Source: Candidatus Nomurabacteria bacterium (GTDB lineage: Bacteria; Patescibacteriota; Minisyncoccia; Phycocordibacterales; UBA9973). From it: a DNA stretch of 64,000 nucleotides. Of this stretch, positions 990-58,992 are shown piece by piece. The position numbers and the translations under genes were made by a program. The stretch covers positions 3,785 to 67,784 of the forward strand of contig CP064958.1 in assembly GCA_016699085.1 (NCBI GenBank). Reading direction: 5' to 3'. The notes beneath the pieces are model-generated. The model had not been told where the DNA came from, ran no database searches, and saw only the letters and a list, made by a program, of their open reading frames with translations. The stretch's first letter is position 1. Each line of letters starts with the position of its first letter.

Positions 990-1043
990 GATAGACAAAA
1001 TATAAAAGTAACAGTGTTTCAAACGTTTTAAACCAAAAATACT

Positions 1044-1103
1044 GCCGCCTTACTTGCCTGAATGACTGAAATTATTCAGTCGGGCGGGGCTCAGTTGACC
1101 CCG
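1044..1103 (+). repeat. Partial copy of tRNA-Thr 5' end (acceptor 5' strand + D-arm) split by a 35-nt hairpin element
   Basis: gccgcctta + cttgcctgaatgactgaaattattcagtcgggcgg + ggctcagttg; compare intact tRNA gccgccttagctcagttgg. Confidence 0.5.
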
Positions 1104-1167
1104 TACTCAAAACAAACTATTATATTTTTATTCTTTAAATCCTTGTTATTCAATTTATCCCTTAAGA

Positions 1168-1240
1168 GCCGCCTTAGCTCAGTTGGTAGAGCAACTGTTT
1201 TGTAAACAGTCGGTCCTCGGTTCAAGTCCGAGAGGCGGCT
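1168..1240 (+). tRNA. tRNA-Thr (anticodon TGT)
   Basis: Cloverleaf: acceptor gccgcct/aggcggc, D-arm gctc-agttggta-gagc, anticodon stem aactg/cagtt with loop ttTGTaa, T-arm ctcgg-ttcaagt-ccgag, discriminator t; CCA not encoded. Confidence 0.85.
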
Positions 1241-1342
1241 CTTAGTGGAGAAATTACTTATATGATTGATACGGGGTAAATGCCGCGACTGTTTTGCCTG
1301 TCCCGTAGCATCCATCTTACTAGGTGGATTGATTCTGGAATA

Positions 1343-1414
1343 AACAGTCGTCCTCGCCTGCCCGAATGACTAAAATCATTCAGTCGGGGGGGTTCAAGTC
1401 CGAGAGGCGGCTCC
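1343..1414 (+). repeat. Partial copy of tRNA-Thr 3' half split by a second copy of the 35-nt hairpin element; last 23 nt identical to tRNA 3' end
   Basis: aaacagtcgtcctcg + cctgcccgaatgactaaaatcattcagtcggggg + ggttcaagtccgagaggcggctc. Confidence 0.55.
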
Positions 1415-1476
1415 AGAAAATAATATCCTTGCGTAAGAATGCAATCAAGTATAAAGTACATACAAAATACTTTCTC

Positions 1477-3453: not shown

Positions 3454-5583
3454 TTAAATATATCGCTTTTGAAGTCCCCAGGTAATGATCATCATCATGA
3501 CACCAAGTATTGCAACACCGCTTGTTGCAGCACCCGTCTGTGGCAATGTCTCAGCATTTGCGCCTAAGACTTCGCCGCCCGTTGCTCCGCCACCACCGCC
3601 AGCATTACTTCCATTTTCAATCTTTGCTCCAAGTACTGCTCCACCACCTGATGTCGGACGACTGCCACCGGTAACCGTACCGTAGTAAGTGCCCCCAGGA
3701 AGTCCTCCACCAGGTGTAGTGTTTGTACCACCAGTAGTATCTCCTCCATTGCCACCACCTCCGCTTCCGGGAATATCATCATTAGTTATAGTGCATGTTT
3801 TGTTTTCATCTAAGCCTATAGTGATCGATCCTGCACTGTCGCAATCTCCACTGTAACTAACCTCATACCCAGTAGCACCCGTCTCTGTTACTGTATATGT
3901 TCCGACATTGACACTAGCACTTACTCCAGAGACAACTCCTGTTGCTCCGACAAACAATGGGAAGTCACTAACGATTCCTGTGCCTCCGTTATTATTGACA
4001 ACGACTTTCGTAACAGTCACAGTGCCAGTCTGAGTTCCACCACCACTACCTCCCCCACCAGGATCTTCGCAAGAATCAGGCTTTGTGTAGTAAGCATAGA
4101 ATCCATCAGCCTTTGGTGTCGTATGCATTTCAAAATTGACTGCGTCATCTACTATAGAGAATGAATCCTTTTGTGTATCCTTGAGTTCCATTTTATTAAA
4201 ATCAACATCGTTCGTAACACCCATTAGTGCTGCATTCATGAATGTAAGTGCTCCGATCGTGTGTTCATGACCATCATCTGTATGATTTGCGTATTGATTG
4301 AGTCTAACATATCCATCATTTCGTTCTATAGCAAATCCTTGGACATCTTGGTAACTAGCTATATCAGGATCGATAACTGATGCTACGCTATTACCAATAT
4401 AGAACCATGTATCTGTTGGAATTTTATTTGCTAGTGTATTACCACCAACGTAAACATCACTCGTCATGTTCCCTGCACTAGTATTTTCTAGTGTGGTCAC
4501 AGACACTTTAGCAAATGCCTTATCAGTACATACATTTGTATTTTGACATTGTACTGTACAAGATTCACTGGCGCCGCTTGTGTCGCATGATTCCCATGAT
4601 TGATTCACAGTACCATCACCACAAAATGCAGGAATGAGATCCTCACCGCCTGTATCATCAACAGTGTCGCAATTCGCAATGCCGATTCGTAAGTGGTAGA
4701 GAACTCCTGCAGTATTCAAAAGTGGATCATCGCTACCTGCCATATTGGTCACCTCGATTTTGATTGTATTTGTGCCTGCATGTAGGATGCTTGGATCAAT
4801 ATCATACTTATCTTGAGTTCCTAAAGTATAATTATCCTCACTTGCATCAGCGCCAACAGCTATATCATTTACCCACACCTGATAGGAGTTATCAGCCGCA
4901 ATCATAAGCTGTGCCTTAAAGTAGGTTTCGTCAACTGGCAATGTAAAATTTTTCTCAAATGTCTTTGTTTCCGCAATGCTTGGATTTTGAACGAGAAGAC
5001 TATCCCAAATCCAGGTTGCATTGGGTACATCTGCACTCCAAAGGCCATGTTCTGTTGTTGCCACAGCATTACCACCACCACTAACAGTATTCGCTGTATT
5101 GCTTAGGACAATCGCAGCGTCCATTTGGCATGAGTCGCCATAGGTATCCTGAAATACATCTAAAAATGGAGAGTCACTGTCTTCGAGATTGCTCACATAT
5201 ATGACACCATCGATAACGGTTTGATTTTCGAAAGCTTTCTCACTAGATTGATTTATAGTTTTCTGTATGGGGGCTGTAAATATGTCTCCTATTGCAGCTG
5301 ACATTGAAAGTACAGTTTCAATGACTGATGGAGTTTCAACGACTGTTTCAGTTGGAGGCAGAACTTCTTCTGTACTAACTGTCTCGTCTGAGATAACGCT
5401 TGGTATAGTCTCCTCTGTCATTGGCACAATAGGAGGTACTACTTCAGTAACTACATTTTCGTCTTCAGCATATGCTCGAAATGCAAAAGTATCGCCAAAT
5501 GCAATAGTAATAAATAAAAGCATACTTGCTGTAAGTATCCAAATATAGGCCTGATTCTTTGCGAGAATAGAATATGACTTCAT
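3454..5583 (-). CDS. LPXTG-anchored cell-surface protein (Gly/Thr-rich, Cys-rich module, Ig-like repeats)
   Basis: Signal peptide; C-terminal LPQTG followed by hydrophobic segment and KRYI positive tail; low-complexity GGGSGGG linkers. Confidence 0.8.
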   Translation of the reverse strand: MKSYSILAKNQAYIWILTASMLLFITIAFGDTFAFRAYAEDENVVTEVVPPIVPMTEETIPSVISDETVSTEEVLPPTETVVETPSVIETVLSMSAAIGDIFTAPIQKTINQSSEKAFENQTVIDGVIYVSNLEDSDSPFLDVFQDTYGDSCQMDAAIVLSNTANTVSGGGNAVATTEHGLWSADVPNATWIWDSLLVQNPSIAETKTFEKNFTLPVDETYFKAQLMIAADNSYQVWVNDIAVGADASEDNYTLGTQDKYDIDPSILHAGTNTIKIEVTNMAGSDDPLLNTAGVLYHLRIGIANCDTVDDTGGEDLIPAFCGDGTVNQSWESCDTSGASESCTVQCQNTNVCTDKAFAKVSVTTLENTSAGNMTSDVYVGGNTLANKIPTDTWFYIGNSVASVIDPDIASYQDVQGFAIERNDGYVRLNQYANHTDDGHEHTIGALTFMNAALMGVTNDVDFNKMELKDTQKDSFSIVDDAVNFEMHTTPKADGFYAYYTKPDSCEDPGGGGSGGGTQTGTVTVTKVVVNNNGGTGIVSDFPLFVGATGVVSGVSASVNVGTYTVTETGATGYEVSYSGDCDSAGSITIGLDENKTCTITNDDIPGSGGGGNGGDTTGGTNTTPGGGLPGGTYYGTVTGGSRPTSGGGAVLGAKIENGSNAGGGGGATGGEVLGANAETLPQTGAATSGVAILGVMMMIITWGLQKRYI

Positions 5584-7522: not shown

Positions 7523-8254
7523 CTACTTACTATTCACTGTTCCACTTTCAGGCAGTGCAGTGCTACTCGTCGCATCAAGAGCTTGAGTTGCTTCAGCGGC
7601 CAATCCTTCAGGCAAATCAGGCAAGATAGCCTCAACGTCTTCTATTGTTTTAAATCCGGTATAAAGCTTGCCATCGATTATGAGTGCCGGTAGTTTAGTA
7701 TCTTCTATTTTATAAATTGAAATTAGCGCGCGGATAGCAGAGAGGTCAAGTCCGTAGTCAAATGAGTACACACGAAGCTTGGAGTATTTCTCACGAAGCG
7801 ACGTCAGTGCGAATCCCTGCTTAATACATTCGCTACAGTTCTCGCTCGTCGTATAGAAATAGAGAATAAAGTGCGACGTAAAACCACAACGTTCGCTGAT
7901 TTTCTTCAAAAGCAAATAGTCCTTGATCTCAAGTAGTGAATAATACTTTTTTAGACTCGTCACACTATCTTCATCAGTAATATGCTCTTCACTGTAGGTT
8001 ATTTTCTCAGCCAGTGAATTGAGCTCCTGCGTCAACACTGACTCATCGACATCCTTACAGCTTAAATCTTCATCCAAGAGTGAGAACTGCGTCTCAGTCG
8101 ATAGAATATCAATCGAGATCTTATCCTGAATGCTTTTGATATTATCGATTTTCTTTTGCGTAAACAAATTACTCAGATATAGTGCTGTCACAAACAAAAG
8201 AAGCGTAATCGCAAAGACAATAACATATTTTTTCCAATCAATTTTTGCATTCAT
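7523..8254 (-). CDS. Membrane-anchored thioredoxin/glutaredoxin-fold CxxC protein
   Basis: N-terminal TM; CSEC (CxxC) followed later by LPALIIDGKLYTGF resembling the glutaredoxin cis-Pro/GG region. Confidence 0.4.
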   Translation of the reverse strand: MNAKIDWKKYVIVFAITLLLFVTALYLSNLFTQKKIDNIKSIQDKISIDILSTETQFSLLDEDLSCKDVDESVLTQELNSLAEKITYSEEHITDEDSVTSLKKYYSLLEIKDYLLLKKISERCGFTSHFILYFYTTSENCSECIKQGFALTSLREKYSKLRVYSFDYGLDLSAIRALISIYKIEDTKLPALIIDGKLYTGFKTIEDVEAILPDLPEGLAAEATQALDATSSTALPESGTVNSK

Positions 8255-13441: not shown

Positions 13442-13834
13442 TTAATGGTATTTCCAAGCTGTTTGTTTCAATTCCTTTCGGATAGCACTATGGTTGGGCA
13501 CAAGTTCGGCCACTAAATTCCAAAAATTTGCAGAATGATTGAATTCCTTTATGTGGCACAATTCGTGCACTATTATATAGTCGGCAATATGGGGCGGTAA
13601 AAATAAAATTTTGTAATTAAAATTTAAATTCCCCTGCTTGGAGCAGCTACCCCAGCGGGATTTGGTATTTCGAATGGACACCCTTCCCACCTTATAACCA
13701 TAGTGAGTATTGAGCTCGCCAATCTTCTTATGCACCAACCCCCGAGCATCTTCTTTGTATTTTTTATAATCCCACCGAGTATACTTTTTCTTTCCTAAGA
13801 AATTTAAAATTCCGTTTAATGATATTAAAGAATT
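13442..13834 (-). pseudogene. N-terminally truncated YgjP-like (DUF45) metal-dependent hydrolase fragment
   Basis: RWGSC...DYIIVHELCHIKEFNHS (HExxH) matches C-terminal half of the full-length paralog at 15133..15882; open frame only from 13834, TTG start at 13738, in-frame stop at 13835..13837; about 110 N-terminal residues missing. Confidence 0.5.
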
Positions 13835-15132: not shown

Positions 15133-15882
15133 TTAACTAGTCTGAACCCCGACAGTTTCCAGCTTATCCTTCACTTTCTCCCATTTCGGAAACTTCTTCT
15201 TCAAGAACTTATAAAAAAGTTTATTGTGACTTCTGTACTTCATATGGCACAACTCATGGACGATAACGTAGTCGATACATTCGCGTGAAGTATGAATGAG
15301 TTTTGGATTCAAAATGACCGTGTCGTTGTCGAGGAAGCTACCCCAACGCTTCTTCATCTCTCTAATAACAAGTGGTGGCATCTTCTTGTAATCAAACTTT
15401 GCTTGCATCAACTCGAATCGCTCATGGAAGACTCGGCCAACTTTTTCTTCGTACCACTTGTCCAAAAGTTTCTTGGTGTGTCGTCCATCCTGCACGCCTT
15501 TGCTTGTATAGACCATAAGCAATCCCTTGGTCATAGACACCTTGTCTTCACTCGAACGCTTCACCATGAGCTTGTACTGCTTGCCGAGATAGAGAAATCC
15601 TTCGCCTGAGACGTATTCCTTCTGGTACACGCGTCGCTGATACTTCTTGAAGAAGCTCAGTTGTTTCTCAAGCCAAAACCACTTCTTTTTTAAGAAGGTT
15701 TCTACTCGCTCATCTTCTGCGCCATGCGGAGCTTTAAGGGTTATTCCGAGGTCTGGTTTTACTGTGAGACTGAGAGTCAGTCTATCTTGCATGACGAGGT
15801 CGTAGTGGTAGACAAATGAGCCAAATACAAATTCTTTTTTAGCTGAAGATTTCATAATTGTTTTCTGCAAGTGAAAGGACAC
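15133..15882 (-). CDS. YgjP-like (DUF45) metal-dependent hydrolase, full length
   Basis: RWGSF...DYVIVHELCHMKYRSHN HExxH motif; position downstream of hsdR is typical for this family. Confidence 0.7.
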   Translation of the reverse strand: MSFHLQKTIMKSSAKKEFVFGSFVYHYDLVMQDRLTLSLTVKPDLGITLKAPHGAEDERVETFLKKKWFWLEKQLSFFKKYQRRVYQKEYVSGEGFLYLGKQYKLMVKRSSEDKVSMTKGLLMVYTSKGVQDGRHTKKLLDKWYEEKVGRVFHERFELMQAKFDYKKMPPLVIREMKKRWGSFLDNDTVILNPKLIHTSRECIDYVIVHELCHMKYRSHNKLFYKFLKKKFPKWEKVKDKLETVGVQTS

Positions 15883-18800
15883 TCGAAATGACGAGCTTCA
15901 TGTCGTCATCCGACAGGTCGATATTCTTCTCCTTCTTCACTACATCGTAGAGATAGTCATCGATAGTGTTCATGATGCGACGCTTCACGTCGATATTCTT
16001 GTACCAATCGACAATTGCTTCCTGCTTCACGATACCGAAGATATCCAAGACAATGGAGATAAACACTTCCTCTGGCATGTTGAACTTCTTGAAGCAATCC
16101 CTGAGGTTGCGGTAGAAGACATCAGAACCTTTCTCGGCAACGATGGTGCTAGGCAAACTATCGTCCTTCTTGTTAACCACATCGTCTTCAATCAACTTCA
16201 ACTGCTTGAGTGCGGCGACATCAGCTATCTTGCCGTCTCGCATCTCCTGCAAGATTTGAGAGATTTTCTTAGAGAATCGTTCGTAGAATTCGGGGTCAGA
16301 CTCCATCCGTTCAGTGATGGTCTTTTGGGTCTGTGCCGCGATTGCTTCGGCTTTGGATTTATCAGAGCCGAGGTTCTCAATAGCTTCCTCAAACTGCTTG
16401 CGGTCAGTGATGTTGATTTGTGTCGTCAAAAGCTCAACGCCTCGCGCATCAACATACTTATCGAGAATATTCACGAGAGATTGTTTGTACTCGGAGAGGT
16501 CAACGCGGTCTGCATACTTCAAACTCGCAGTCTTACGAAGCTCCATGAACTTCTTGAGCTCACGCGTGTACATATCGAGATGAGGAAAAACATGGACGAA
16601 ATCTTGCAGGACAAAACACTCGTTCAAGTTCTTAATGAACGAATTGAGTGCTTTGTAGAACATCTCCCGTTTTGGAGCATCATCAAGAAGCTGAAGAAAT
16701 GCTTCATCGTCGGATGACCCCTTAATCTCCTTGAAGATGTCGTGTACCAAGCTGTAGCTCTCCTCAAGTTCCTGCACCTTCTCAGCAACATCAATAAGCG
16801 TTCCTTTAACATCGTTCTCGTCGTAGTTACCGAAGAGCTTCATCGCAGTATCGATGTTCTTGGCATTCTCTGAATAGTCGATAATATAGCCCGCGGTCTT
16901 TGGGAGCTTCTTGTTTTCGTGTAAGCGATTCACACGAGCGATTGCCTGGAGCAGGTTATGGTCCCTCAAGTCCTTTGCGAGATAGAGTACGGTATTGCGT
17001 GGAGCATCGAACCCAGTGAGCAGTTTGTCGACAACGATAATGATTTCAATGCCATCATCGTTGTACTTGAAACTATCGATAGCATCCTTCTCATACTTCC
17101 CAACATTACTGTGATTCTCACGGACGGTATCGAGATACTTCACCACTTCCTTCTTGTGTGTGTCTTGCTCGTCTCCGTCATCGTGTTCATCAGAGATAAC
17201 GACAGCCGTGCGGACGTTTGCACGAGTCTGGAAGAACTTCTGGAAGAGTACTGCTGAATACTTAGACGGAGCAACAATCTGCGCCTTGAGTCCAGTGTTC
17301 TGGAAGTGGTGCATGAAGTGCTTCTCTATATCGTAGGCAATCTCAACAATACGTTGAGGATTGTCTTTGATTATCTTGGAGCCAACATACTTCTGGAGTT
17401 CCTTCTTCTGTTTGTCGTTGAGGTCTTCGGTAACGCGAGCAACGTGTCGGTCGATTTGTTCTTCGTTCTGAATCAAATCAACATAGCGACCTTCATAGAT
17501 AAGAGGAAGGATGATTTTGTCAGCCAATGCGTCATCGATGGTGTACTTGTCGATATAGCCACCGAACTTTCTCCAGCTCTCTTTCTCTCCCTTCATGAGT
17601 GGCGTACCCGTAAAGCCGATGTAGCACGCACTCGGAATGATTCGATTCATTTCTACGTTTGCGATACCACTCTGGCTTCGGTGTGCTTCGTCGATAAGAA
17701 CGAAGATGTTTTGGTCTTCATCAACAAATCCTGCCTTTTTCTTGGCAGCTGATTCAAATTTGTGAACCAGTGTCGTAACGACAGCGAGGTTTTTATCCCT
17801 GATGAGGTCGAGCAGGTTTTGACCACTCGTTGCCTGTATCACTTCTTTTTTGAGATTACAGTTCTTGAACGTATCTTTGATTTGTTTATCCAAGTCCTTA
17901 CGGTCGGTCACGATAATGACGCGTGGATTGTTTATGTGAGGGTTCTCAATCAGAGCTTTCACAAACATCACCATGGTGAGTGACTTACCAGACCCTTGTG
18001 TGTGCCACACCAAACCACCTCGGCGACGAGTGATACCTGAAGGGCTTGTCTCTGTCTCAGCAACACGCTCAAGCATCTTGTGAATTGCAAAGTACTGTTG
18101 GTAGCGAGAGAGTTTCTTTACTCCAGCATCAAAGAGAATGTAGTTCTTAGTGAGGTCGAGAAGTCGAGCGGGCTCAAAGAGTGCCGCGATGCCACGGTCT
18201 TGTTCAGTTGGGAGACGATTCATTTTCTGCACGTGACCTTCGGTGTATCCGTTTAGGTCAGTGAGAATCTGGGCGTATACAGTCGGGTCTACTTTTGTAG
18301 CAATCAGTGCTTTTGCTTTAGCATTTTCGTCTGCTTCAGGCGTACTTTTCTCTTTCCAGACTGCATAGAATTTATTTGGTGTGCCAATAGTGCCGTACTG
18401 AAGCTCTTTGCCGTTTGTACCAACAAGAAGTTGGGTGTAGGTAAAGAATTTAGGACAAAACTCTGGACCCTGATTGCGGTTCATCTGGTTAATAGCTTCT
18501 AGCGTTGCTACTCCTGACTTCTTGTTCTCAATGACCGCGATAGGGATACCGTTTACGAAACAGACGATATCGGGACGAATGGTTTGCTTTCCAGTCACGA
18601 CGAATTCTGCCGTCACATGGAAGGCGTTATTCTCTGGATTTTGGAAATCTATAAAACGGAAGTTTTTAGAAACTGTCTTTCCTCCAACGCTTACCTTGAT
18701 AGTCTTACCACCGCTTGTTGGCATGATGGTGTTGTAGATTTTCTGTGCGGTATCAATAAGACCTTCGTACTGAATATGTTCGAGCTCATCTATAGCGTCG

Positions 18801-19027
18801 CGTACGTCCTTCTCGCCGAATTTGTACTCAGTGCCAGCGACTTCGTAGCTGTTGATTTCCATGAGCTTCTCATTGGCAATATCAGTGAGAATGAAACTAC
18901 TCGTGTCACCACCGCGCTGACGTAGTGCCTCTTCAGTAGAGATGTATTTGTACCCCATAGCCAAAAGGAGCTCCAATGCTGGGAGTTGGGACTGTCGTGC
19001 TTCATCAAAGTGTACTTTTTCTAGCAT
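15839..19027 (-). CDS. hsdR: Type I restriction enzyme R subunit (HsdR)
   Basis: WHTQGSGKSLTM (motif I), VLIDEAHRSQ (DEAH), FTGTP, LQAIARVNR (motif VI); 1062 aa. Confidence 0.9.
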   Translation of the reverse strand: MLEKVHFDEARQSQLPALELLLAMGYKYISTEEALRQRGGDTSSFILTDIANEKLMEINSYEVAGTEYKFGEKDVRDAIDELEHIQYEGLIDTAQKIYNTIMPTSGGKTIKVSVGGKTVSKNFRFIDFQNPENNAFHVTAEFVVTGKQTIRPDIVCFVNGIPIAVIENKKSGVATLEAINQMNRNQGPEFCPKFFTYTQLLVGTNGKELQYGTIGTPNKFYAVWKEKSTPEADENAKAKALIATKVDPTVYAQILTDLNGYTEGHVQKMNRLPTEQDRGIAALFEPARLLDLTKNYILFDAGVKKLSRYQQYFAIHKMLERVAETETSPSGITRRRGGLVWHTQGSGKSLTMVMFVKALIENPHINNPRVIIVTDRKDLDKQIKDTFKNCNLKKEVIQATSGQNLLDLIRDKNLAVVTTLVHKFESAAKKKAGFVDEDQNIFVLIDEAHRSQSGIANVEMNRIIPSACYIGFTGTPLMKGEKESWRKFGGYIDKYTIDDALADKIILPLIYEGRYVDLIQNEEQIDRHVARVTEDLNDKQKKELQKYVGSKIIKDNPQRIVEIAYDIEKHFMHHFQNTGLKAQIVAPSKYSAVLFQKFFQTRANVRTAVVISDEHDDGDEQDTHKKEVVKYLDTVRENHSNVGKYEKDAIDSFKYNDDGIEIIIVVDKLLTGFDAPRNTVLYLAKDLRDHNLLQAIARVNRLHENKKLPKTAGYIIDYSENAKNIDTAMKLFGNYDENDVKGTLIDVAEKVQELEESYSLVHDIFKEIKGSSDDEAFLQLLDDAPKREMFYKALNSFIKNLNECFVLQDFVHVFPHLDMYTRELKKFMELRKTASLKYADRVDLSEYKQSLVNILDKYVDARGVELLTTQINITDRKQFEEAIENLGSDKSKAEAIAAQTQKTITERMESDPEFYERFSKKISQILQEMRDGKIADVAALKQLKLIEDDVVNKKDDSLPSTIVAEKGSDVFYRNLRDCFKKFNMPEEVFISIVLDIFGIVKQEAIVDWYKNIDVKRRIMNTIDDYLYDVVKKEKNIDLSDDDMKLVISSVLSLAENNYEIFS

Positions 19028-19033
19028 GGTGTT

Positions 19034-20260
19034 TTAGTTATGGGTTGATAATTTTTCTGGTGTCCGAATCGTTCCTGTAATGAGATTGTTCAAAAGATAC
19101 CGTTTTTGTTCTTGGAGAACTTTTAGCTTACGCTTAAGAACTTGAATTTCTTCGTCCGCAGTAGTAAGTATGTTTGCAATTGCATCTTGTTCGATTTTTG
19201 GAGGAAAAACAGCCTTAAAACCTTCAAAGACTTTAGCCGACAAATGTTTAACCGTTGTAGAACTAGTTTCTTGTTCGATTATTTTTAAAGGAACTTGAAT
19301 CTTATAGAAGAGATAGTCTTTATTTGCATTCTTAAATGCCACCAACTTTCCCACTCGTTGGTTTAAGAGAGCCTTGCCTTTAGACCATTTACAAGTCATG
19401 AAATCACCGTCCATCCCGATCAAAATATCCCCGTCCTGTACAGTGTAAGAATCTGGAATATCCGTCCCGGAATAGTACAAAATCTGACCATCTCCCTTTA
19501 AATCTCTATTTCTTACCACACGAACACCTCTCTCTTCAGAAAAATATTTAGACGGAAAAGGAAATCCGCTCCAAAATTTACATGCATCACCAAACGACTT
19601 GGATTCCCATTTGTCTTTAAACTCTGGTAAACGAGTTTTGCCCGTAAGTAATTCCTGCATCAAACCTTTTTTAATATGCTTTTTGTTTTCAATCTTCTGG
19701 GCAAGTTTTCCAATAGCTTTGTCCCAAGTCTCAAGTACTAAAACAATTCTTTTCTGCTCAGAAACGGGCGGGAGTTTTATGTTTACATGATTGAGTAAGG
19801 TGCCACTGGTTAGAGCACGGGTTGTGTATGAACTTTTCTCCATTATCTCTTTACGGGCTGATTGAGTACGAAAACAGTATTGAGCATATTCAGGAACTAG
19901 CACTTTACTTTTAGGACGAGCCCGTAGAACGAAGCCACTAAAAACAGTGTCTCGAAAGTCATCTAGTGCAACAGCAGAAAATCCGATTTCATCCAATGTT
20001 TCTGAGGTTCTAGTAAAAAAAACATCGCCTCTCTTTACATTGAATCTACCTAACTCAGATTTATTAACCTCAACTCTCCCTAATACATTATCTTTGTAGA
20101 GTCCACCGCCTTTATTAACGTCCATGTAATTGATTATCGGGGTGCCGTGTCCAAAAAACTCTTTTTCTTTGTTGAGTCCGTTTTTGAAATCAAAAAGACC
20201 TACGAGCTTCATAGCTCGCCATCCTTTCGGGATATTCTCTTGTATAGGTTTATTTTTCAT
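19034..20260 (-). CDS. hsdS: Type I R-M specificity subunit (HsdS), two target-recognition domains
   Basis: 408 aa, duplicated TRD architecture with conserved central and C-terminal coiled regions. Confidence 0.85.
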   Translation of the reverse strand: MKNKPIQENIPKGWRAMKLVGLFDFKNGLNKEKEFFGHGTPIINYMDVNKGGGLYKDNVLGRVEVNKSELGRFNVKRGDVFFTRTSETLDEIGFSAVALDDFRDTVFSGFVLRARPKSKVLVPEYAQYCFRTQSARKEIMEKSSYTTRALTSGTLLNHVNIKLPPVSEQKRIVLVLETWDKAIGKLAQKIENKKHIKKGLMQELLTGKTRLPEFKDKWESKSFGDACKFWSGFPFPSKYFSEERGVRVVRNRDLKGDGQILYYSGTDIPDSYTVQDGDILIGMDGDFMTCKWSKGKALLNQRVGKLVAFKNANKDYLFYKIQVPLKIIEQETSSTTVKHLSAKVFEGFKAVFPPKIEQDAIANILTTADEEIQVLKRKLKVLQEQKRYLLNNLITGTIRTPEKLSTHN

Positions 20261-21098
20261 CTAGCTTTTTAATGGCTCCGAGTTGTTGTGAAATGGATTG
20301 CAATTGCTTCTTCACCTCAGCGTCCTTATCTTTTTTCTTCTTTTCATCTATCTTTTGATCCAGGATTAGCTCAATTGAGAGCTTAAGTGGCAAGAAATAC
20401 TGCCGACACTCATCTTCAGAGAGTTCGTGCACGCCCCTACTTAGAATTCCGTATATTGCTTTCATTTCAACAAGCTGGCTTGGAAGATGTTCTTTAAGAA
20501 GAACGATTTTATCCTCCATCCTCGTAGTCTTAAATACATCAGCCGCAACCTTTAGATCTTTAGCTCCACTAAATGTTTCTTGGATAAGATTCTCAAAGAT
20601 TCGACGCAAATAAACAAATGAGCCCGCCCCTGCACCGTGAGCTGCAAGACCAATAGCTTTTTTAAGATTCTTCAAATCCTCTTCAGGAAGAACCTTGTCA
20701 TACTTTTTACCCAATTCAGCAAATTGCAGGTCAGCCAAAGATGGGAATTGGCCAACTTTCATGACTTGCTTGGTCATTTCATTCTTATATACAAAGAAAC
20801 ATAGAGTATCGTTGTCCTTTCTCTTGCACTTAAGAGTCACGACAGCAAAGCCGCTAACCTTTTCAGGTGTGTACTGATTTACATACTCTGTGTCTAGCTT
20901 TTTTATCCACGAAAAACCCACACTGTAGGTAGTGTCGGTGTGATTTTTTGCTGAGTAGGCATCTACGTCTTCAGAAAATAGCTCCAACGGTTTCTCAAGA
21001 TCAGAGTATTCAAATAATTCGTATATTGGGGTTTCAAAGTAAAAATCATGCTTAGTTAATTTCGCCTTTTCTAATTCTGTGTTCGCTTGTTCGGTCAT
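20250..21098 (-). CDS. Hypothetical protein embedded between hsdM and hsdS (possibly DUF4145-like)
   Basis: 282-aa ORF with start/stop overlapping neighbours; C-terminal region GLAAHGAGAGSFVYLRRIFENLI...LSRGVHELSEDE loosely resembles DUF4145 proteins often found in type I R-M loci; assignment by memory only. Confidence 0.55.
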   Translation of the reverse strand: MTEQANTELEKAKLTKHDFYFETPIYELFEYSDLEKPLELFSEDVDAYSAKNHTDTTYSVGFSWIKKLDTEYVNQYTPEKVSGFAVVTLKCKRKDNDTLCFFVYKNEMTKQVMKVGQFPSLADLQFAELGKKYDKVLPEEDLKNLKKAIGLAAHGAGAGSFVYLRRIFENLIQETFSGAKDLKVAADVFKTTRMEDKIVLLKEHLPSQLVEMKAIYGILSRGVHELSEDECRQYFLPLKLSIELILDQKIDEKKKKDKDAEVKKQLQSISQQLGAIKKLDEK

Positions 21099-21099
21099 A

Positions 21100-22614
21100 T
21101 TAGTTGATTCCTAGTTCCTTTAAATATCCGACCATTTGTTTTTCAAGCTTCTGAAGCTCAGGCTCAAGGGAGGCGAGCTCCTTGAGGTTTGCCTTAATAT
21201 CTACAGGCGCCTCTTCCTCGAAGGTATCGACATAGCGAGTGATGTTGAGATTGAATTCGTTTTCTTCTATCTCACTGACGCTGACCTTGCGAGAAAACTT
21301 CTCAATATCCTTCCTCTTCTTGTAGGTATCAAAAATCTTCACAATATTTTCCTCGGTCAGCGTGTTCTGTGCTTTGCCTTGCTTGAACTCCTTTGAGGCT
21401 TCGATAAATAGGACATCTTTCTTCTTTTCATTCGCACCACCTTTCTCGCGTGAACGGTCAATGACCAACACAGCAACTGGAATACCAGTAGTCTGGAAGA
21501 GTCCTGCTGGAAGTCCGATGACGGTATCGATAATATTTTCATTCAAGAGTTGCTCGCGAATCTTTCCTTCAGCACCACCTCGGAAGAGAACACCGTGAGG
21601 GACGATGACCGCGACGCGTCCAGTTTTTGGCTTTGCGGTTTCAACCATATGAGTGATGAATGCAAAGTCGCCTTTATCTTTTGGCGGTACACCACGCCAG
21701 AAGCGATTGTATTTATCTGACTCGGCATGTTCAGCACCCCACTTCTTGAGGGAGAAGGGTGGGTTCGCGACCACTACGTCGAAGTGCATGAGGCTGTCGT
21801 TCTCCACCAAGAGCGGATTGTTGAGCGTGTCGCCCCATTCGATACGAGCAGAGTCTTTGCCGTGGAGGAACATGTTCATACGAGCGAGCTGGTATGTAGA
21901 GCCAGTAGATTCCTGACCGTAGAGCGCATAGTTCTTTGAACCTTGCTTCTCAACTTCCTCACCAGCCAAGAGAAGTAGACCTCCCGAACCGCAGGCAGGG
22001 TCTGAAATTCTGTCACCCTCTTTTGGTTCGGCAAGCATTGCGACGAGATGTGCGACTGAACGTGTGGTGAAAAATTCTCCCGCTTTTTTGCCAGCATCCG
22101 CACCAAAACGCTCAATCATGTACATGTAGGAATTACCGATTATGTCATCGTCTACATCAGAGAGGTCAATCTTTGCAAAGTCCTGAATCAAATTACGGAG
22201 CATCTTGTTGCGCTGTTCAAGTTTGCCAAGGATTGATTCGGAGTTGAAATCGACACTGAACACGCCATCAAGTTTTTCCTTGTTAGCATCTTCAATGCGG
22301 TGAAGTGCTTTGTTTATTTCTTCACCAATATTATCCTCCTCAATCTTGCTGTAGAGATAATCAAAGGACGACTTCGGGGGTAGGTAGAAGCGGTCGAGCT
22401 TCATTTTTTCTTCGATACGCTTTTCGTCGCTTCCGAAACGCTCCTTGTATTCGTCGTGACGCTTTTTGTTGAGGTCACTTATATATTTCAAGAAAAGCAT
22501 CGTCAACGCATAGTCTTTGTAGACACCACCGTCCACGCTACTACGTGAAGAATCAGCCGCCGACCAGAGCGTCTTGTTGAGGTCTTCCTGTGTGTATTTT
22601 TTGTGAGTAGTCAT
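21100..22614 (-). CDS. hsdM: Type I R-M N6-adenine DNA methyltransferase subunit (HsdM)
   Basis: VVANPPFS catalytic motif IV, SAM-binding DPACGSGG motif I, 504 aa. Confidence 0.9.
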   Translation of the reverse strand: MTTHKKYTQEDLNKTLWSAADSSRSSVDGGVYKDYALTMLFLKYISDLNKKRHDEYKERFGSDEKRIEEKMKLDRFYLPPKSSFDYLYSKIEEDNIGEEINKALHRIEDANKEKLDGVFSVDFNSESILGKLEQRNKMLRNLIQDFAKIDLSDVDDDIIGNSYMYMIERFGADAGKKAGEFFTTRSVAHLVAMLAEPKEGDRISDPACGSGGLLLLAGEEVEKQGSKNYALYGQESTGSTYQLARMNMFLHGKDSARIEWGDTLNNPLLVENDSLMHFDVVVANPPFSLKKWGAEHAESDKYNRFWRGVPPKDKGDFAFITHMVETAKPKTGRVAVIVPHGVLFRGGAEGKIREQLLNENIIDTVIGLPAGLFQTTGIPVAVLVIDRSREKGGANEKKKDVLFIEASKEFKQGKAQNTLTEENIVKIFDTYKKRKDIEKFSRKVSVSEIEENEFNLNITRYVDTFEEEAPVDIKANLKELASLEPELQKLEKQMVGYLKELGIN

Positions 22615-22616
22615 GG

Positions 22617-23201
22617 TTATTTGATGGTTAAGCTTTTAAATGTTGCGTTGATAATGTTTTGTTTGATTTCCTTTTCTCTATCAATAATTTTTTGCTGTTC
22701 GCGAATGTTTATAAAAAGATTTATGAGTGCCTCCTGCTTTCGCAGGGGAGGTATCGGGATGTCTATTTTTTCTAACTCTTTACGAGGCAGTGCTCCGATG
22801 TATGAACCTGAAATAATCTGAGTGAGAGACTCCTGACCCTCTTTAGAATTTAAATAGTGTGAAAGATATTCTGGAAGTACTTCTTTCGAGGTGACACGGA
22901 TGACATGGACGGAGGAAGAAGGAATGACGTTCGATTCATCGGCAATATATGTGGTTGACCTGAATGCGCCTGACTTCATGCCACGAGCGACGAGAAGGAC
23001 ATCGTTCTTTTGGAGGTGACCGGAATACCCAGGGGTATCGTGAGATATTCTGGTGAGGGTTTTCGTATTATCAAACGGTACTCCTTGGACGAGGTCTTTT
23101 GCCTGAAATACAAAGAGGTCGCCAGTGTTGTCTGGCTTGATGGCACCTCGGAAGGTGTACCCTGCAATTACCTCTGATACTTCATGCAATTTCATATACA
23201 T
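22617..23201 (-). CDS. Half-size type I R-M specificity subunit (single TRD HsdS)
   Basis: 194 aa; one TRD plus conserved C-terminal helical spacer (LRKQEALINLFINIREQQKII). Confidence 0.65.
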   Translation of the reverse strand: MYMKLHEVSEVIAGYTFRGAIKPDNTGDLFVFQAKDLVQGVPFDNTKTLTRISHDTPGYSGHLQKNDVLLVARGMKSGAFRSTTYIADESNVIPSSSVHVIRVTSKEVLPEYLSHYLNSKEGQESLTQIISGSYIGALPRKELEKIDIPIPPLRKQEALINLFINIREQQKIIDREKEIKQNIINATFKSLTIK

Positions 23202-54866: not shown

Positions 54867-55631
54867 ATGATACACATACCTGCTTATGTCATAGCCATAA
54901 TGCCCAATAAAACCAGAAGGTTATTCATTAATGAAAAAGTCGCAGCACAATGTGGTGCTCGTGTTATTACCGAAAGTCCAAGCAGTACAATCTTTGAAAC
55001 CAAGGCAGAATTGCGCGAAGCATTGAAACTCGAAGCCCGTAGAAATACTATCGAAGCTTTTATGAAAACCGTGGGTCACTCAAAAGATAGAGGAAGAATT
55101 GTGACGGTTCTGTCCTATACACCGGAAGAATTCTCAACATACCTCACAGCAAAAGGTATCAAAGTAGGTACTGCCGGTACATTGAAAAATCTGATGGTAA
55201 CCAAGGGTTACTTTACGTTCTTTGACTTCCTAGAGCGAATAAGTTCACAGAAGCTCGCCAGCATGATCGGTTACGGAGATACATATATTCATACTATTCG
55301 ACAAGTTATTGAAGAAGAAAAAATTCCATGGGAATTAATATTCAAAAAAAGGAAACCGAGGAAAATGAGTAACGAAAAAATTAAAGCTCTACTTAAAAAG
55401 CCGATAGCTGATCTTATCGAACTGGGGCTTGATCATAGAATATGCCTACGCATGCAACGTACTACTGGCGCGAAAAATCTGAGGGAGTTTATTACTAGCA
55501 AACAAGACTACGAAAACAAGGGCGAAGAAATCCATAGTTTTGGCAAAAAAGCTTTGTTAGAATTGGAAAATTTTTTGGAAGACAGAGGTATACCACGAGA
55601 TATTGACCTCAATAAATACTTTTCTGAATAA
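54867..55631 (+). CDS. Hypothetical protein with helix-hairpin-helix-like C-terminus
   Basis: 254-aa ORF. Confidence 0.45.
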   Translation: MIHIPAYVIAIMPNKTRRLFINEKVAAQCGARVITESPSSTIFETKAELREALKLEARRNTIEAFMKTVGHSKDRGRIVTVLSYTPEEFSTYLTAKGIKVGTAGTLKNLMVTKGYFTFFDFLERISSQKLASMIGYGDTYIHTIRQVIEEEKIPWELIFKKRKPRKMSNEKIKALLKKPIADLIELGLDHRICLRMQRTTGAKNLREFITSKQDYENKGEEIHSFGKKALLELENFLEDRGIPRDIDLNKYFSE

Positions 55632-55708
55632 GTTTATTTTTACTTTACACCAGCGAACCTGGTGTATTTTTATTTTTATTTTTTAGTACCATATCGTTTC
55701 TCATACAA

Positions 55709-55760
55709 TTTGCTCCTATAATCTATATATACGGCCGTATATATAGATTATAGGAGCAAA
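55709..55760. repeat. Perfect 52-bp palindrome
   Basis: tttgctcctataatctatatatacgg|ccgtatatatagattataggagcaaa, zero mismatches, no spacer. Confidence 0.9.
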
Positions 55761-55806
55761 AAGTGAAGAATTAGAGGATTAGGGGTTAAAGTGGTCGATG
55801 GTATCA

Positions 55807-55835
55807 TTGACTTTTCTATTAATTTATGCTATGCT
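55807..55835 (+). promoter_or_regulatory. Sigma-70-type promoter P0 (TTGACT-N17-TATGCT)
   Basis: Same architecture as P1-P3 downstream. Confidence 0.5.
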
Positions 55836-55872
55836 GTTTGCATTCATTGTTCATTGATAAAAAAGTATACAC

Positions 55873-56241
55873 ATGCAAAAGATAACCTTAAAGTCATTTA
55901 GAGATTCCAATCTCGGGTTAATCATCTGGGTTTTGGGATTAGTGTTTGGAGAAATATTAAAATTTATATTCTCCCCTTTTGTGTTTATGTTTTCACCCTC
56001 TAGGAAACTTGCATACAAGCTTGCCTGCTCAAAAAAATTCGTATACTGGCGTAAAATCACCAGAGATGGCAGTGTTATCACTGTAAGTGCCCATCATGGG
56101 CATGCTGAAAAACCTGAATTCGTGCAAATATATGAATTTGATACATCAAATAATACATACGAGGAATACAGAAATACCGACAACGGTAAACAGAACCACA
56201 TAAAAGGAACGCTGAAAGTAGGAATAAAAAAGTTCACCTAA
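55873..56241 (+). CDS. Hypothetical small membrane protein
   Basis: 122 aa, N-terminal TM helices. Confidence 0.5.
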   Translation: MQKITLKSFRDSNLGLIIWVLGLVFGEILKFIFSPFVFMFSPSRKLAYKLACSKKFVYWRKITRDGSVITVSAHHGHAEKPEFVQIYEFDTSNNTYEEYRNTDNGKQNHIKGTLKVGIKKFT

Positions 56242-56253
56242 AAACAAACCCAG

Positions 56254-56556
56254 ATGCAAAACATTACCGAGTTCGAAAATTTCCTTTTCGCTAATCTATT
56301 GGGTTACGTAACGAGAACTGCTACCTCAAAAAAGGAGGCAGATAATTTTTTTCAAACGTTTAAGAAAGACCTCAACAAGCAGGTCTGGGATCTGCTCGAA
56401 GAGCATGATGTAGCTGTGTTTGTACAAATCAACGCAGCAATTGAGGAACTCAGGGATTACTCACTGGGTTTTGGTGATAAAGAAAAGTGGTGTCTGCGTT
56501 TTGTAAATAATCTCAAGACGCATACGCAAAGTGAAACATTTGAGTATAGTAACTAA
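56254..56556 (+). CDS. Hypothetical small protein
   Basis: 100 aa, 12 nt after previous gene. Confidence 0.5.
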   Translation: MQNITEFENFLFANLLGYVTRTATSKKEADNFFQTFKKDLNKQVWDLLEEHDVAVFVQINAAIEELRDYSLGFGDKEKWCLRFVNNLKTHTQSETFEYSN

Positions 56557-56585
56557 TATCATATTGCCAATATGGCCATAAGCAA

Positions 56586-56615
56586 AAGCGATCGCACGAT
56601 CGCTTTTTATTTTTC
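56586..56615 (+). terminator. Rho-independent terminator
   Basis: aagcgatcg-cac-gatcgctt + tttttattttt. Confidence 0.65.
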
Positions 56616-56630
56616 GATCCCAATTTTTGG

Positions 56631-56668
56631 AAAAATAAAAAGCATCTACCTAGTAGATGCTTTTGTTT
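56631..56668. terminator. Bidirectional terminator
   Basis: agcatctac-cta-gtagatgct flanked by A-run and T-run. Confidence 0.65.
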
Positions 56669-56682
56669 GTATCATTTCTTCT

Positions 56683-56784
56683 CTAATCACTTGCCATGAT
56701 AGCAAACATGAGGAACAGGAAACCGAGGAAGTAACAACCTGTGAAGAATAAGACAAAAGCTACAACAAAAAAGAAAAGTGCCAT
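56683..56784 (-). CDS. 33-aa hydrophobic peptide MALFFFVVAFVLFFTGCYFLGFLFLMFAIMASD with its own promoter and terminator
   Basis: Minus-strand ATG..TAG; upstream TTGACT-N17-TATAAA promoter (about 56838..56866 minus strand); ends at bidirectional terminator. Confidence 0.35.
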   Translation of the reverse strand: MALFFFVVAFVLFFTGCYFLGFLFLMFAIMASD

Positions 56785-56896
56785 AGTCTGAAAATTTAGG
56801 TTAAGAAATTTTTTATTTTGTTTGATATATTTATAGCATAAATATATAGTAAAGTCAATACAAGCCTTCTATCTTAGTATTTAAAATATAGATTAT

Positions 56897-56924
56897 TTGA
56901 CTTTTTGATAATTCACTATATAAT
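56897..56924 (+). promoter_or_regulatory. Sigma-70-type promoter P1 (TTGACT-N16-TATAAT)
   Basis: tattTGACTttttgataattcactaTATAAT 15 nt upstream of ATG 56940. Confidence 0.6.
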
Positions 56925-56939
56925 CCAGAAAACGACAAA

Positions 56940-57383
56940 ATGAAAAATAGAGTACTCCCCGCAAGGCCATACAGACCAGACACACTCGGATCTATGGGCA
57001 AGGCCAGCAGCATGATCGTAAGGCAATACCAATTCCCCCATGAATACCAAGAGCATGAAAAGCTCGTATTTACAGATCATGATCGGTGCATACAAGCCAA
57101 CTACGATCAAGCAATGGCATGTATCAGAAAGCATACACAAAGAGGAGATTTAGGATTAGAATCTTGGTTCTTAAAATCCAACGATGAGAAGATACTGACT
57201 TTCCTAATAGAATTTCTCGATGTCAAAGATGGAACAATGTGGACAGGATACCGCATCAGAGGATCAGTTAATCAAAGCGATGGTGGTGCAATCTGGAGTT
57301 TGGAACTTTTTGCAAAAGCACCAGGCAGTAGCACAGCGGTATATACAGGCACAAAAGACGTACCAAATGTATATGACTATTAA
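56940..57383 (+). CDS. Hypothetical protein
   Basis: 147 aa. Confidence 0.5.
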   Translation: MKNRVLPARPYRPDTLGSMGKASSMIVRQYQFPHEYQEHEKLVFTDHDRCIQANYDQAMACIRKHTQRGDLGLESWFLKSNDEKILTFLIEFLDVKDGTMWTGYRIRGSVNQSDGGAIWSLELFAKAPGSSTAVYTGTKDVPNVYDY

Positions 57384-57404
57384 TTAAAAATGTGCACAAC
57401 AAAA

Positions 57405-57432
57405 ACAGCTCTCCCAGAGCTGTTTATTTTTT
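57405..57432 (+). terminator. Rho-independent terminator
   Basis: acagctct-ccc-agagctgt + T-run. Confidence 0.65.
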
Positions 57433-57479
57433 ACTTTACTCGTATGTGCCAATGTGTTACTCTTGGCAAAATTACGTAC

Positions 57480-57794
57480 ATGGAACAAGCAACCACGAAA
57501 AATACTAGTCAGAAAAAATTTACTTTTTTCGAGAGTTTACTATTACCTTTTTGGAAACGAGATGCTTACAAAAAAGCCAAGGAACTAATCACTACTCCCA
57601 ACACGAAGCAAATTGACATAATCCGAGCAATTAGAAAACTTTCTGATTACCACATATATGACAAAAAAGGCAATGTGGTAGGAAATCCCTACTACATAGA
57701 GAAAGTTATGGATGTAGTTGAGGAACACAGATATGATGTATTGGATCGAATAGCGAGAAACAATCTTGCTGAATTCGAAACAGATTTTGCTTAA
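57480..57794 (+). CDS. Hypothetical protein
   Basis: Start taken at MEQATTKN after terminator; track start 57390 lies inside the terminator. Confidence 0.45.
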   Translation: MEQATTKNTSQKKFTFFESLLLPFWKRDAYKKAKELITTPNTKQIDIIRAIRKLSDYHIYDKKGNVVGNPYYIEKVMDVVEEHRYDVLDRIARNNLAEFETDFA

Positions 57795-57838
57795 TGCACT
57801 GCATACAATGCAAGTACAATCTTATTCGAAATCTACAG

Positions 57839-57867
57839 AACGCTGACCATATGGGCAGCGTTTTTTA
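57839..57867 (+). terminator. Rho-independent terminator
   Basis: aacgctg-accatatggg-cagcgtt + tttttt. Confidence 0.65.
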
Positions 57868-57889
57868 TCTTGCCATTTATTTGAGTATA

Positions 57890-57917
57890 TTGACTTTTTG
57901 ATAATTCTATATATAAT
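57890..57917 (+). promoter_or_regulatory. Sigma-70-type promoter P2 (TTGACT-N16-TATAAT), near-identical to P1
   Basis: tatatTGACTttttgataattctataTATAAT. Confidence 0.6.
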
Positions 57918-57932
57918 ATAGAAAAATAAAAA

Positions 57933-58238
57933 ATGTTCGACTGTTCTAAGAATATATACAAAAAGTTAACAATTACACTTTTCAACGGTGTGGAAATATC
58001 TGGCTATATCGGAAAATCTTCCAAAGATAGCGCATTTTTACCGCGAGTATTTCAGACATACCTAAAGGAAAAATTTGGCGTACTAGAACATGAGTGCACA
58101 GCAATGATCATTGCTGGTGACCCAATAAAGATGAGAGTGTTCCCCGAGCGGACACCATGGGCATGGCGTAGAATGGCGGAAAAGGCTGCCAAGAAAGTCA
58201 AGTGGGAACAACTCCCCAAGGTATTTGATTCCAACTAA
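57933..58238 (+). CDS. Hypothetical protein
   Basis: 101 aa. Confidence 0.5.
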   Translation: MFDCSKNIYKKLTITLFNGVEISGYIGKSSKDSAFLPRVFQTYLKEKFGVLEHECTAMIIAGDPIKMRVFPERTPWAWRRMAEKAAKKVKWEQLPKVFDSN

Positions 58239-58283
58239 GATTTTATTTAACGAAACCGACCTACTGACAAAACAGTACGGTCA

Positions 58284-58350
58284 CGTGGGAGCCAAAGGAG
58301 GCTCCCACAATATGGATAATCCTTACCGAAATTTGGTAAGGATTTTTTAT
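58284..58350 (+). terminator. Tandem hairpin terminator
   Basis: gtgggagcc-aaaggag-gctcccac and ataatccttacc-gaaatttg-gtaaggatt + T-run. Confidence 0.6.
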
Positions 58351-58394
58351 TTTCCTACTTCCCTACTTTTGACTTTCAACTTTATTTGAAGATA

Positions 58395-58423
58395 TTGACT
58401 TTTAATAAAATAAATGTTAATAT
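58395..58423 (+). promoter_or_regulatory. Sigma-70-type promoter P3 (TTGACT-N17-TAATAT)
   Basis: gatatTGACTtttaataaaataaatgtTAATAT. Confidence 0.55.
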
Positions 58424-58443
58424 ATACAAAAAAGAAAACTGTT

Positions 58444-58935: not shown

Positions 58936-58963
58936 TCCGTTTGAAAGTCTGTTAATTCACAAA

Positions 58964-58992
58964 ACGCTGTACCTTATGGTCAGCGTTTTTTA
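58964..58992. terminator. Terminator shared by convergent genes
   Basis: acgctg-taccttatggt-cagcgt + T-run. Confidence 0.6.

Follow-up and report, generated by a model that had tools for sequence, protein, structure and literature searches.

The 64-kb window analyzed here (64,000 nt of contig CP064958.1 of a Candidatus Nomurabacteria bacterium, positions 3,785 to 67,784 of the forward strand) hosts at 1044-1415 an intact tRNA-Thr gene surrounded by pieces of another one. The region is best explained, at a probability which we put at roughly 0.6, as a single ancestral tRNA-Thr(UGU) gene into which very small hairpin-ended elements have inserted flush and in nested fashion, breaking it up; one of them, denominated I2, carries a complete tRNA. 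Two other insertions, I1 and I4, are members of a 36-nt hairpin family, here called family H, which is taken in the same reading to be a low-copy palindromic DNA element found across the bacteria of the candidate phyla radiation (CPR). The components of the locus are listed below by window coordinates; positions of the tRNA are numbered from its 5' end, and "outer" denotes the ancestral gene.

1044..1052, plus strand: outer tRNA-Thr positions 1-9, identical to 1168-1176
1053..1088, plus strand: I1, 36-nt hairpin of family H, inserted flush between tRNA positions 9/10 (covariance model, 60.0 bits)
1089..1098, plus strand: outer tRNA positions 10-19; position 19 is G>A in the window, G in relatives
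1095..1123, plus strand: promoter-like TTGACC-17-TATTAT spanning the junction of outer piece and I2 (consensus scan only)
1099..1276, plus strand: I2, about 178 nt, in the D-loop between positions 19/20, carrying the presumed working tRNA; 7-bp inverted ends CCCCGTA / TACGGGG
1152..1167, plus strand: leader arm complementary to the trailer 1241-1256, extending the acceptor stem (inverted repeat and fold)
1168..1240, plus strand: inner intact tRNA-Thr(UGU), followed by CTT, CCA not encoded (ARAGORN, Rfam)
1241..1256, plus strand: trailer arm complementary to the leader 1152-1167 (inverted repeat and fold)
1277..1284, plus strand: outer positions 20-21 (TA) and filler AATGCC replacing positions 22-23 (GA), from comparison with relative L021
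1285..1296, plus strand: outer tRNA positions 24-35, 92% identical to 1191-1202
1297..1340, plus strand: I3, 44-nt hairpin insert in the anticodon, positions 35/36; ends resembling those of I2 (fold)
1341..1356, plus strand: outer tRNA positions 36-52, with a 1-nt deletion in the variable loop (repeat family, alignments with relatives)
1357..1391, plus strand: I4, second copy of family H, in the T-stem, positions 52/53 (covariance model, 58.7 bits; shared with relative L014)
1392..1415, plus strand: outer tRNA positions 53-76, including the encoded CCA at 1413-1415 (exact repeat)

The intact tRNA-Thr(TGT) is recognized at 1168-1240/1241 by ARAGORN and by Rfam (71.5 bits). Rfam searches at permissive thresholds over 950-1500 retrieved this tRNA only, with nothing for fragments or inserts and no ribozyme match. 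The initial annotation had described the tRNA as bracketed by split partial copies of its own ends, and all the parts that it named are present. Comparison of the repeats with the inner tRNA assigns 1089-1097 to tRNA positions 10-18 and 1341-1350 to positions 36-45, and an exact 23-nt copy of the tRNA 3' end (1219-1241) is found at 1391-1413. The two inserts then noticed, thought to share one 35-nt hairpin, are indeed of one family, but the element measures 36 nt (1053-1088); the length of I4 is 35-36 nt, since this copy terminates in a G run. The tRNA piece 1285-1296, the 44-nt anticodon insert 1297-1340 and the 7-bp inverted repeat 1099-1105/1270-1276 are additions to the earlier description.

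The upstream piece of the outer gene stops at position 18/19 and the downstream part picks up at position 20, so that the two make up one gene together. The D-stem 3' strand has been destroyed by the filler (TAGAGCAACTG in the window against TAAATGCCGCGACTG in L021), position 19 is mutated and one base of the variable loop is deleted; because of these lesions the outer gene is dead, and its pieces are probably decaying pseudogene fragments. The counterpart of outer positions 24-35 in L014 is the unmutated GCAACTGTTTTG. Three tRNA-like stretches in series might also descend from a tandem triplication of the gene in which the first and third copies then decayed, and the third stretch opens with GCCGC, able to pair with the 3' acceptor strand. 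This origin, already disfavored by the spacers, which are unrelated to the ancestral flanks, is hardly credible: it would require that the first copy retained only positions 1-19 and the third began at position 20, an unlikely coincidence, the GCCGC reads ACCGC in L014, and the allele with a single gene features exactly the outer flanks.

This last allele was found in strain-level relatives, recovered through members of protein clusters and one metagenome match, which diverge 5-10% in adjacent coding sequence. In the uninterrupted allele, detected in L015/L016 and L021-L023 and coming from five samples, a membrane-protein gene is followed by a short old tRNA-like relic, a single tRNA-Thr with encoded CCA, and the rdgB upstream region. 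The tRNA of L021 ends with ...GGCGGCTCCA, and is followed by the rdgB upstream region as in the window. Four flush insertions set the interrupted alleles (window/L017, L014, L018, L019) apart from the uninterrupted one. L014 lacks I1 and has I2-I4; L015 and L021-L023 lack all of I1-I4. With a slash marking the insertion point, the empty site of I1 in L014 is GCCGCCTTA/GCTCAGTTGG (also given as GCCGCCTTA/GCTCAG) and is exact; that of I2 is GTTGG/TAGAGC in L015 and L021-L023, that of I3 is CTGTTTTG/TAAACAG in L021 (also given as TTTTG/TAAACAG), and that of I4 is CCTC/GGTTCAAG in L021-L023. Filled and empty sites differ by the insert alone for I1-I4, and target-site duplications are absent. I1 is present at the same site in L018 and L019 in diverged form. 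Compared with the window copy, 5/36 positions differ in L019 and 9/36 in L018, and divergence at 4-fold degenerate sites in the same strain pairs is 15% and 30%, respectively; I1 thus evolves neutrally in place. Synteny was also sought through RdgB homologues at about 60% identity (L001-L005), which turned out not to be syntenic.

The duplicated tRNA ends had been taken for the attL/attR footprint of an integrase, with the hairpin in the attachment (att) core and the tRNA marking the left edge of an accessory region. Fragments of tRNAs commonly arise from element integration (PMC9897764), the 23-nt direct repeat of the 3' end is exact, and the homology between L014 and the window breaks off precisely where the 3' fragment ends, after ...GGCGGCTCC; past this point L014 hosts on the reverse strand a P-loop NTPase-like ORF (open reading frame; MRKNIILTGLPHSGKST...) in place of rdgB, with no counterpart in the 64-kb window. 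Small att-like events moreover occur in CPR genomes, as modules of about 160 nt found after two tRNA-Arg genes in the L006 genome end in 15-17-nt repeats. Nevertheless, the interpretation is very improbable and does not survive the comparison with relatives. No more than 149 nt separate the repeats, and the interval holds other pieces of the tRNA, in the correct order, together with mini-inserts; the 5' and 3' fragments complement each other exactly, as the two halves into which an insertion of about 178 nt has cut a single gene. The hairpin is found at four different tRNA positions, in 5S sequences and at non-tRNA sites. Neither a distal repeat nor a third copy of either tRNA end is present in the 64 kb. 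No integrase was identified, as the initial annotation had observed, nor any transposase or HUH domain, by Pfam in the 58 ORFs scanned among the 64 window ORFs of at least 70 aa. The genes downstream of the locus (rdgB, an 83-aa ORF, MGMT-domain, sortase and large surface-protein genes) are the same in the window and beside the uninterrupted tRNA of relatives, which contradicts the notion of an island edge already in L021-L023; the comparison of synteny around the tRNA-Thr, which had been suggested at the outset, shows that both flanks and downstream genes are kept, an outcome which the initial annotation had itself named as a refutation.

Among the insertions, I2 stands out for size and content. 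Its 7-bp inverted repeat (1099-1105/1270-1276) is located exactly at its ends, and the element is predicted to fold as a long stalk with a cloverleaf at the tip (z = -4.7), in which leader and trailer pair; the inverted repeat that takes them in (1152-1174 with 1233-1255) is 87% complementary. The inner tRNA is identical to the uninterrupted L021 gene through position 74, and then features CTT instead of CCA. The sequences around it bear no relation to the ancestral flanks, and the inner tRNA is therefore not a local tandem copy. CCA is encoded by the outer gene (1412-1415) and by the uninterrupted allele, not by the inner copy (1240-1243). The AT-rich promoter/leader stretch of I2 is conserved, with 2-4 differences in 70 nt, against 15-30% at 4-fold sites. 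The -35 hexamer of the promoter-like site lies across the junction with the old D-loop. At 1098, the old tRNA position 19, the change from G to A converts TTGGCC into TTGACC, which matches a -35 better, and a perfect TATAAT is found at the -10 position in L014. Both end motifs of I2 recur in I3 and line up with the insert boundaries: CCCGTA close to the 5' end, and TTACT-5 nt-GATTGAT-3 nt-GGG at the 3' end. I3 looks therefore like a minimal member or a deletion derivative of the I2 family. A GTAG is found within I3 just before the palindrome, in internal and not terminal position.

I2 is read as a cassette because its ends are defined, and because an insertion into an essential gene is viable only if a replacement comes with it, a matter of survivorship. 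According to this reading I2 probably carries a complete tRNA-Thr which is now doing the job of the gene that it destroyed. A bolder version, which is possible but should be held as tentative, has I2 as a self-contained replacement cassette, bounded by inverted repeats, which enters the D-loop of an essential tRNA gene equipped with its own promoter-driven copy of that tRNA, and which the host therefore cannot lose; together with the 36-bp hairpin family it would form a CPR-wide class of structure-targeting micro-transposons specialized on stable-RNA genes and mobilized by an enzyme. A split tRNA, restored by trans-splicing through pairing of 1099-1105 with 1270-1276, was considered and rejected, since the product of joining would have no D-stem and the pieces have an intact copy between them.

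Directly upstream of the tRNA gene, L014, L015, L019 and L021 hold an older relic of a tRNA-Thr-like sequence, now decayed (CTGCCTTAGCTGTTTTGGTAGATATGTAAACAAAGTAAC). In the window (1007-1043) and in L018 the relic is replaced by an unrelated stretch including two tandem GTTTNAAAC palindromes. The distribution of the relic conflicts with the coding-sequence tree, and suggests recombination at the locus.

The locus could accordingly be seen as a patchwork, in which the inner tRNA and its flanks came in through homology-facilitated illegitimate recombination, for example after DNA uptake, and the hairpins are passengers of horizontal transfer and gene conversion, with no mobility of their own. 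Discordant alleles, such as the relic of L014, L015 and L019 and the upstream type that the window has in common with L018, fit this view, and so do the unrelated flanks of the inner tRNA and its lack of an encoded CCA, the block far more similar between window and L014 than neutral sites are, and the L007 genome, in which the intact 5S 3' part and the displaced part differ widely, as if derived from different sources. What recombination leaves unexplained is the precise presence or absence of 36 nt without any other change, the recurrence of near-identical 36-mers in unrelated contexts and in different phylum-level lineages, and the inverted repeats placed exactly at insert ends. As a full account it is unlikely; recombination with foreign DNA may well have contributed at the locus.

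The consensus of family H, CCCGCCCGAATGACTGAAATCATTCAGTCGGGCGGG, is a 36-bp imperfect palindrome with arms CCCGCCC/GGGCGGG. The core shared by I1 and I4 matches at 1060-1084 and 1364-1388, against 0.00 matches expected in shuffles. A covariance model detects no copy other than I1 and I4 in the 64-kb window; elsewhere there is one copy per 8-kb locus. Folded as single-stranded DNA, the consensus reaches -14.9 kcal/mol (z = -6.3), and the opposite strand -14.6 kcal/mol. A T at position 3 is common to I4, to I1 of the window, L019 and L018, and to the L007 copy; I1 is plausibly a local copy of I4. Scanning 185,579 species genomes for the exact core yielded four more copies, all in CPR bacteria and in other phylum-level lineages as well. 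The proposal, also advanced in the initial annotation, of a MITE-like (miniature inverted-repeat transposable element) insertion linked to tRNA-like sequence is supported, as empty sites exist in L014 and L021-L023 and the same element is found in tRNA-Arg and 5S fragments.

In L006, a member of the Saccharibacteria, family H splits at 21/22 a copy of positions 1-35 of tRNA-Arg(TCT); the hairpin lies about 40 nt upstream of the intact tRNA-Arg(TCT), and is antisense to that gene. In L007 it splits a partial copy of the 5S gene, which follows immediately after the intact 5S and keeps the operon terminator. In L009 it is located 89 nt upstream of the 23S rRNA gene, in antisense orientation. The L008 copy (L013 is identical) is intergenic, abuts a 19-bp stem and lies about 1.5 kb upstream of the 23S gene. 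A variant in L012 follows a short ORF and precedes a terminator-like hairpin. Overall, 4/7 independent sites are inside redundant tRNA or 5S copies, and 0/7 in a sole functional copy. Orientation relative to the neighboring RNA gene is mixed, with about three sense and three antisense cases.

Other peculiar sequences were noticed in these genomes. The tRNA-Arg(GCG), tRNA-Arg(TCT) and tRNA-Val(TAC) genes of L006 (535-710, 4913-5090, 7090-7193) are each trailed by a similar module: first a terminator-like hairpin, then the 3' end of the same tRNA in inverted copy, which a second hairpin family (CAAGGCATACTAAATGCCTTG) interrupts at 65/66; at the two Arg genes, the last 15-17 nt of the tRNA are directly repeated about 160 nt downstream. 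In L007 (3542-3584, minus strand) the partial 5S also holds a second, unrelated hairpin-forming insert of about 30 nt (TCCACCCTAGGCGGATCAGCCTCGGGCTG), and differs at many positions from the intact 5S in the 3' part. In L008, tRNA-Ala(CGC) and tRNA-Pro(CGG) (4090-4366, 7600-7834) are flanked by several 9-20-nt pieces of themselves, set between unrelated short stretches. Shredded tRNA copies may be common in such genomes.

Viral contigs were scanned for the hairpin core, I3, the I2 end, the tRNA and two L006 module motifs, with negative results; the single match (L020) is a chance match in a GC-rich phage gene. Two metagenome matches (L010 and L011) include the central 22-mer only, lack the arms and have been treated as chance. 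The hairpin is not a CRISPR repeat, as it is never found in tandem, and is too short for an integron attC site. Template/variable repeats of diversity-generating retroelements were considered and dropped, and K-turn and bulge-helix-bulge motifs do not fit, either by eye or on folds. We found in the literature no description of family H, nor of MITEs in Patescibacteria. What the locus displays is a CPR-specific form of miniature palindromic insertion in stable-RNA gene remnants, together with the nested replacement of a tRNA within a tRNA.

That the elements move at the RNA level must be weighed against movement as DNA. Hairpins and I2/I3 would enter stable-RNA transcripts, by reverse splicing or by cleavage and ligation, and return to the genome by reverse transcription and recombination, in analogy with the transposition of tRNA introns in Thermoproteales. 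Insertion is flush and a closing stem is found at every insert boundary; sites coincide with cloverleaf loops or helix junctions (9/10, 19/20, 35/36, 52/53, and 21/22 in L006), and all are in probably transcribed stable-RNA or 3' regions. Similar inserts at different positions of one tRNA recall the archaeal intron transposition summarized in PMC10714607. Substitutions in the arms of family H are mostly C-to-T and give G-U pairs on the strand co-oriented with the neighboring RNA gene, and two compensatory changes favor, in a small sample, the inner helix 8-13/20-25 over an alternative register. The covariation, however, is not significant against shuffles (117/500), and the C-to-T bias is equally expected from deamination of the non-template strand. 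In two genomes, L006 and L009, the element runs antisense to the host RNA gene, and it probably does so in L008 as well. In the predicted folds no bulge-helix-bulge is formed, as the hairpin closes flush at the junction without flanking 3-nt bulges. Each tRNA or 5S copy carrying the element is accompanied by an intact one, I1 decays neutrally, and the damage of the outer gene is beyond repair by splicing. An RNA-level route is on the whole quite improbable.

Mixed orientation, flush insertion, inverted-repeat ends and location at loops or helix junctions that can fold when single-stranded favor instead a hairpin process at the DNA level. The anatomy of the locus and the presence/absence polymorphism are directly shown; as to how the elements move, we infer that they do so as DNA, probably in the form of single-stranded hairpins on which an enzyme encoded elsewhere acts. 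They would preferentially enter tRNA- or 5S-like sequence, at loops and helix junctions that become exposed when transcription is heavy. In stable-RNA operons such transcription would account both for exposed DNA and for the excess of C-to-T changes on the non-template strand. At the locus studied, I2 would have arrived in the D-loop as a single unit already carrying the tRNA, and the outer gene, made redundant, would then have collected I3, I4 and I1. Selection would remove insertions from functional copies and leave those in redundant ones, so that family H would be retained where it is harmless, that is in partial copies that are redundant, and in the leaders and 3' regions of stable-RNA genes with high transcription.

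Several observations weigh against the nested-insertion reading. The non-coding interval 1241-1414, which lies 3' of the inner tRNA and includes I3 and I4, shows 9/174 differences between window and L014, against 31/127 (24%) at 4-fold sites of the neighboring genes; in this comparison of two independent sequences it is about 5x more conserved (p about 1e-11), which would not be expected if it were only a decaying pseudogene. The low divergence could mean that strains have exchanged the block recently, or that it has taken on a secondary function, for example as a terminator or other 3' structure. The absence of I1 from L014 could reflect loss, by precise excision or gene conversion, rather than a never-inserted state; loss is conceivable because I1 is present in the more distant L018 and signs of recombination are found at the locus. 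No target sequence is common to the seven sites of family H (left flanks TTA, TCG, TTC, CGA, GGA, TTA), and copy number, two in the window and four exact-core matches in the genomes scanned, is low compared to classical MITEs or repetitive extragenic palindromes (REPs). I2 is seen at one locus, and its mobility as a unit is argued from its ends. No enzyme able to move these elements was found in the 64-kb window.

On comparative grounds, the hairpin appears to work most like a REP or a Rickettsia palindromic element (RPE). REP/REPIN sequences and RPEs are imperfect palindromes of 20-40 bp, non-autonomous as mobile DNA, sometimes located within genes and plausibly transcribed as hairpins, and the 36-bp family H is alike in this. 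REPs are thought to be handled as single-stranded hairpins by tyrosine transposases of the IS200/IS605 type, and the REPs of the RAYT (REP-associated tyrosine transposase) system have a GTAG or CGTC tetranucleotide at one end (PMC3733652). Unlike REPs, family H has neither tag, is present in low copy number rather than in tens to hundreds, and is found in fragments of stable-RNA genes and not between protein-coding genes; the window yielded no RAYT-type gene. With MITEs, both hairpin H and I2 share terminal inverted repeats and small size, and presence/absence polymorphism between close relatives; the target-site duplication is missing. Insertion without duplication recalls the peel-and-paste transposition of IS200/IS605 elements, but the fixed target of 4-5 nt, 3' of which such elements insert, is not seen in the seven sites.

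In appearance the locus as such is closest to the tRNA genes of Thermoproteales, riddled with introns, but shows no sign of splicing. In these archaea transposing tRNA introns (Fujishima et al. 2010, as summarized in PMC10714607) are short related inserts found at several non-canonical tRNA positions and provided with closing helices. The tRNA gene is similarly a habitat for mobile mini-elements in the present case, which concerns however a bacterium, with no bulge-helix-bulge, insertions in both orientations, and pseudogene carriers always backed by an intact copy. Genes with spliced archaeal introns give a functional tRNA once the inserts are removed, and the outer gene does not. tRNA fragments resulting from att duplications (PMC9897764, and Williams 2002 as cited there) resemble the locus, as a partial copy with an exact repeat of the 3' end lies by a complete tRNA. 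Here, in contrast, the fragments are the original gene and the complete copy is inside the insert of about 178 nt, with no island and no integrase. The rRNA genes of CPR bacteria hold group I and group II introns, some with homing endonucleases (Tsurumaki et al. 2022, as summarized in PMC10714607). Stable-RNA genes are in both instances unusually rich in inserted mobile sequences, but the rRNA introns are large, self-splicing and located in functional genes, whereas the inserts described here measure 36-178 nt and lie in non-functional copies or leaders.

The insertions affect also the annotation of the gene downstream. The rdgB ORF spans 1366-2076 (236 aa), and its ATG at 1366 is inside the I4 hairpin; RdgB homologues start at Met-38 of the window protein, and the call in relatives is 199 aa. 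Given a start codon within the hairpin and homologues beginning at Met-38, the N-terminal extension of 37 residues (1366-1476) is false, as the initial annotation had suspected. The 236-aa RdgB with the false extension is found in public protein sets (P0001, P0129) beside the correct 199-aa call. Among the proteins of the region, the 171-aa one is QQR50299.1 and the 199-aa one is QQR50300.1; homologues of RdgB and members of the protein clusters assign the window to the Candidatus Nomurabacteria (Paceibacteria, CPR).

Elsewhere in the window, a type I restriction-modification locus (15839-23201) includes HsdR, HsdS, an unassigned 282-aa ORF, HsdM and a second, shorter HsdS. A full gene for a YgjP-like metallopeptidase is located beside it, and a truncated second YgjP-like copy about 1.4 kb away (13442-13738, 15133-15882). 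At 54867-62238 there is a run of seven small ORFs of 100-254 aa on the plus strand and, after them, one of 1082 aa on the minus strand; none of them has a Pfam match.

Fragments of this kind mislead annotation, and the false RdgB extension has spread into protein databases. A shredded tRNA beside an intact gene in CPR bins should likewise not be called the boundary of an island without checking relatives. If the hairpin and the I2/I3 family are mobile, very small elements live in the tRNA and rRNA sequences of CPR bacteria, whose genomes are among the most reduced known, and at least one such element would survive by carrying a substitute for the gene that it destroyed. This strategy would differ both from self-splicing, adopted by introns and inteins, and from the reconstitution of the att site, adopted by integrating elements.

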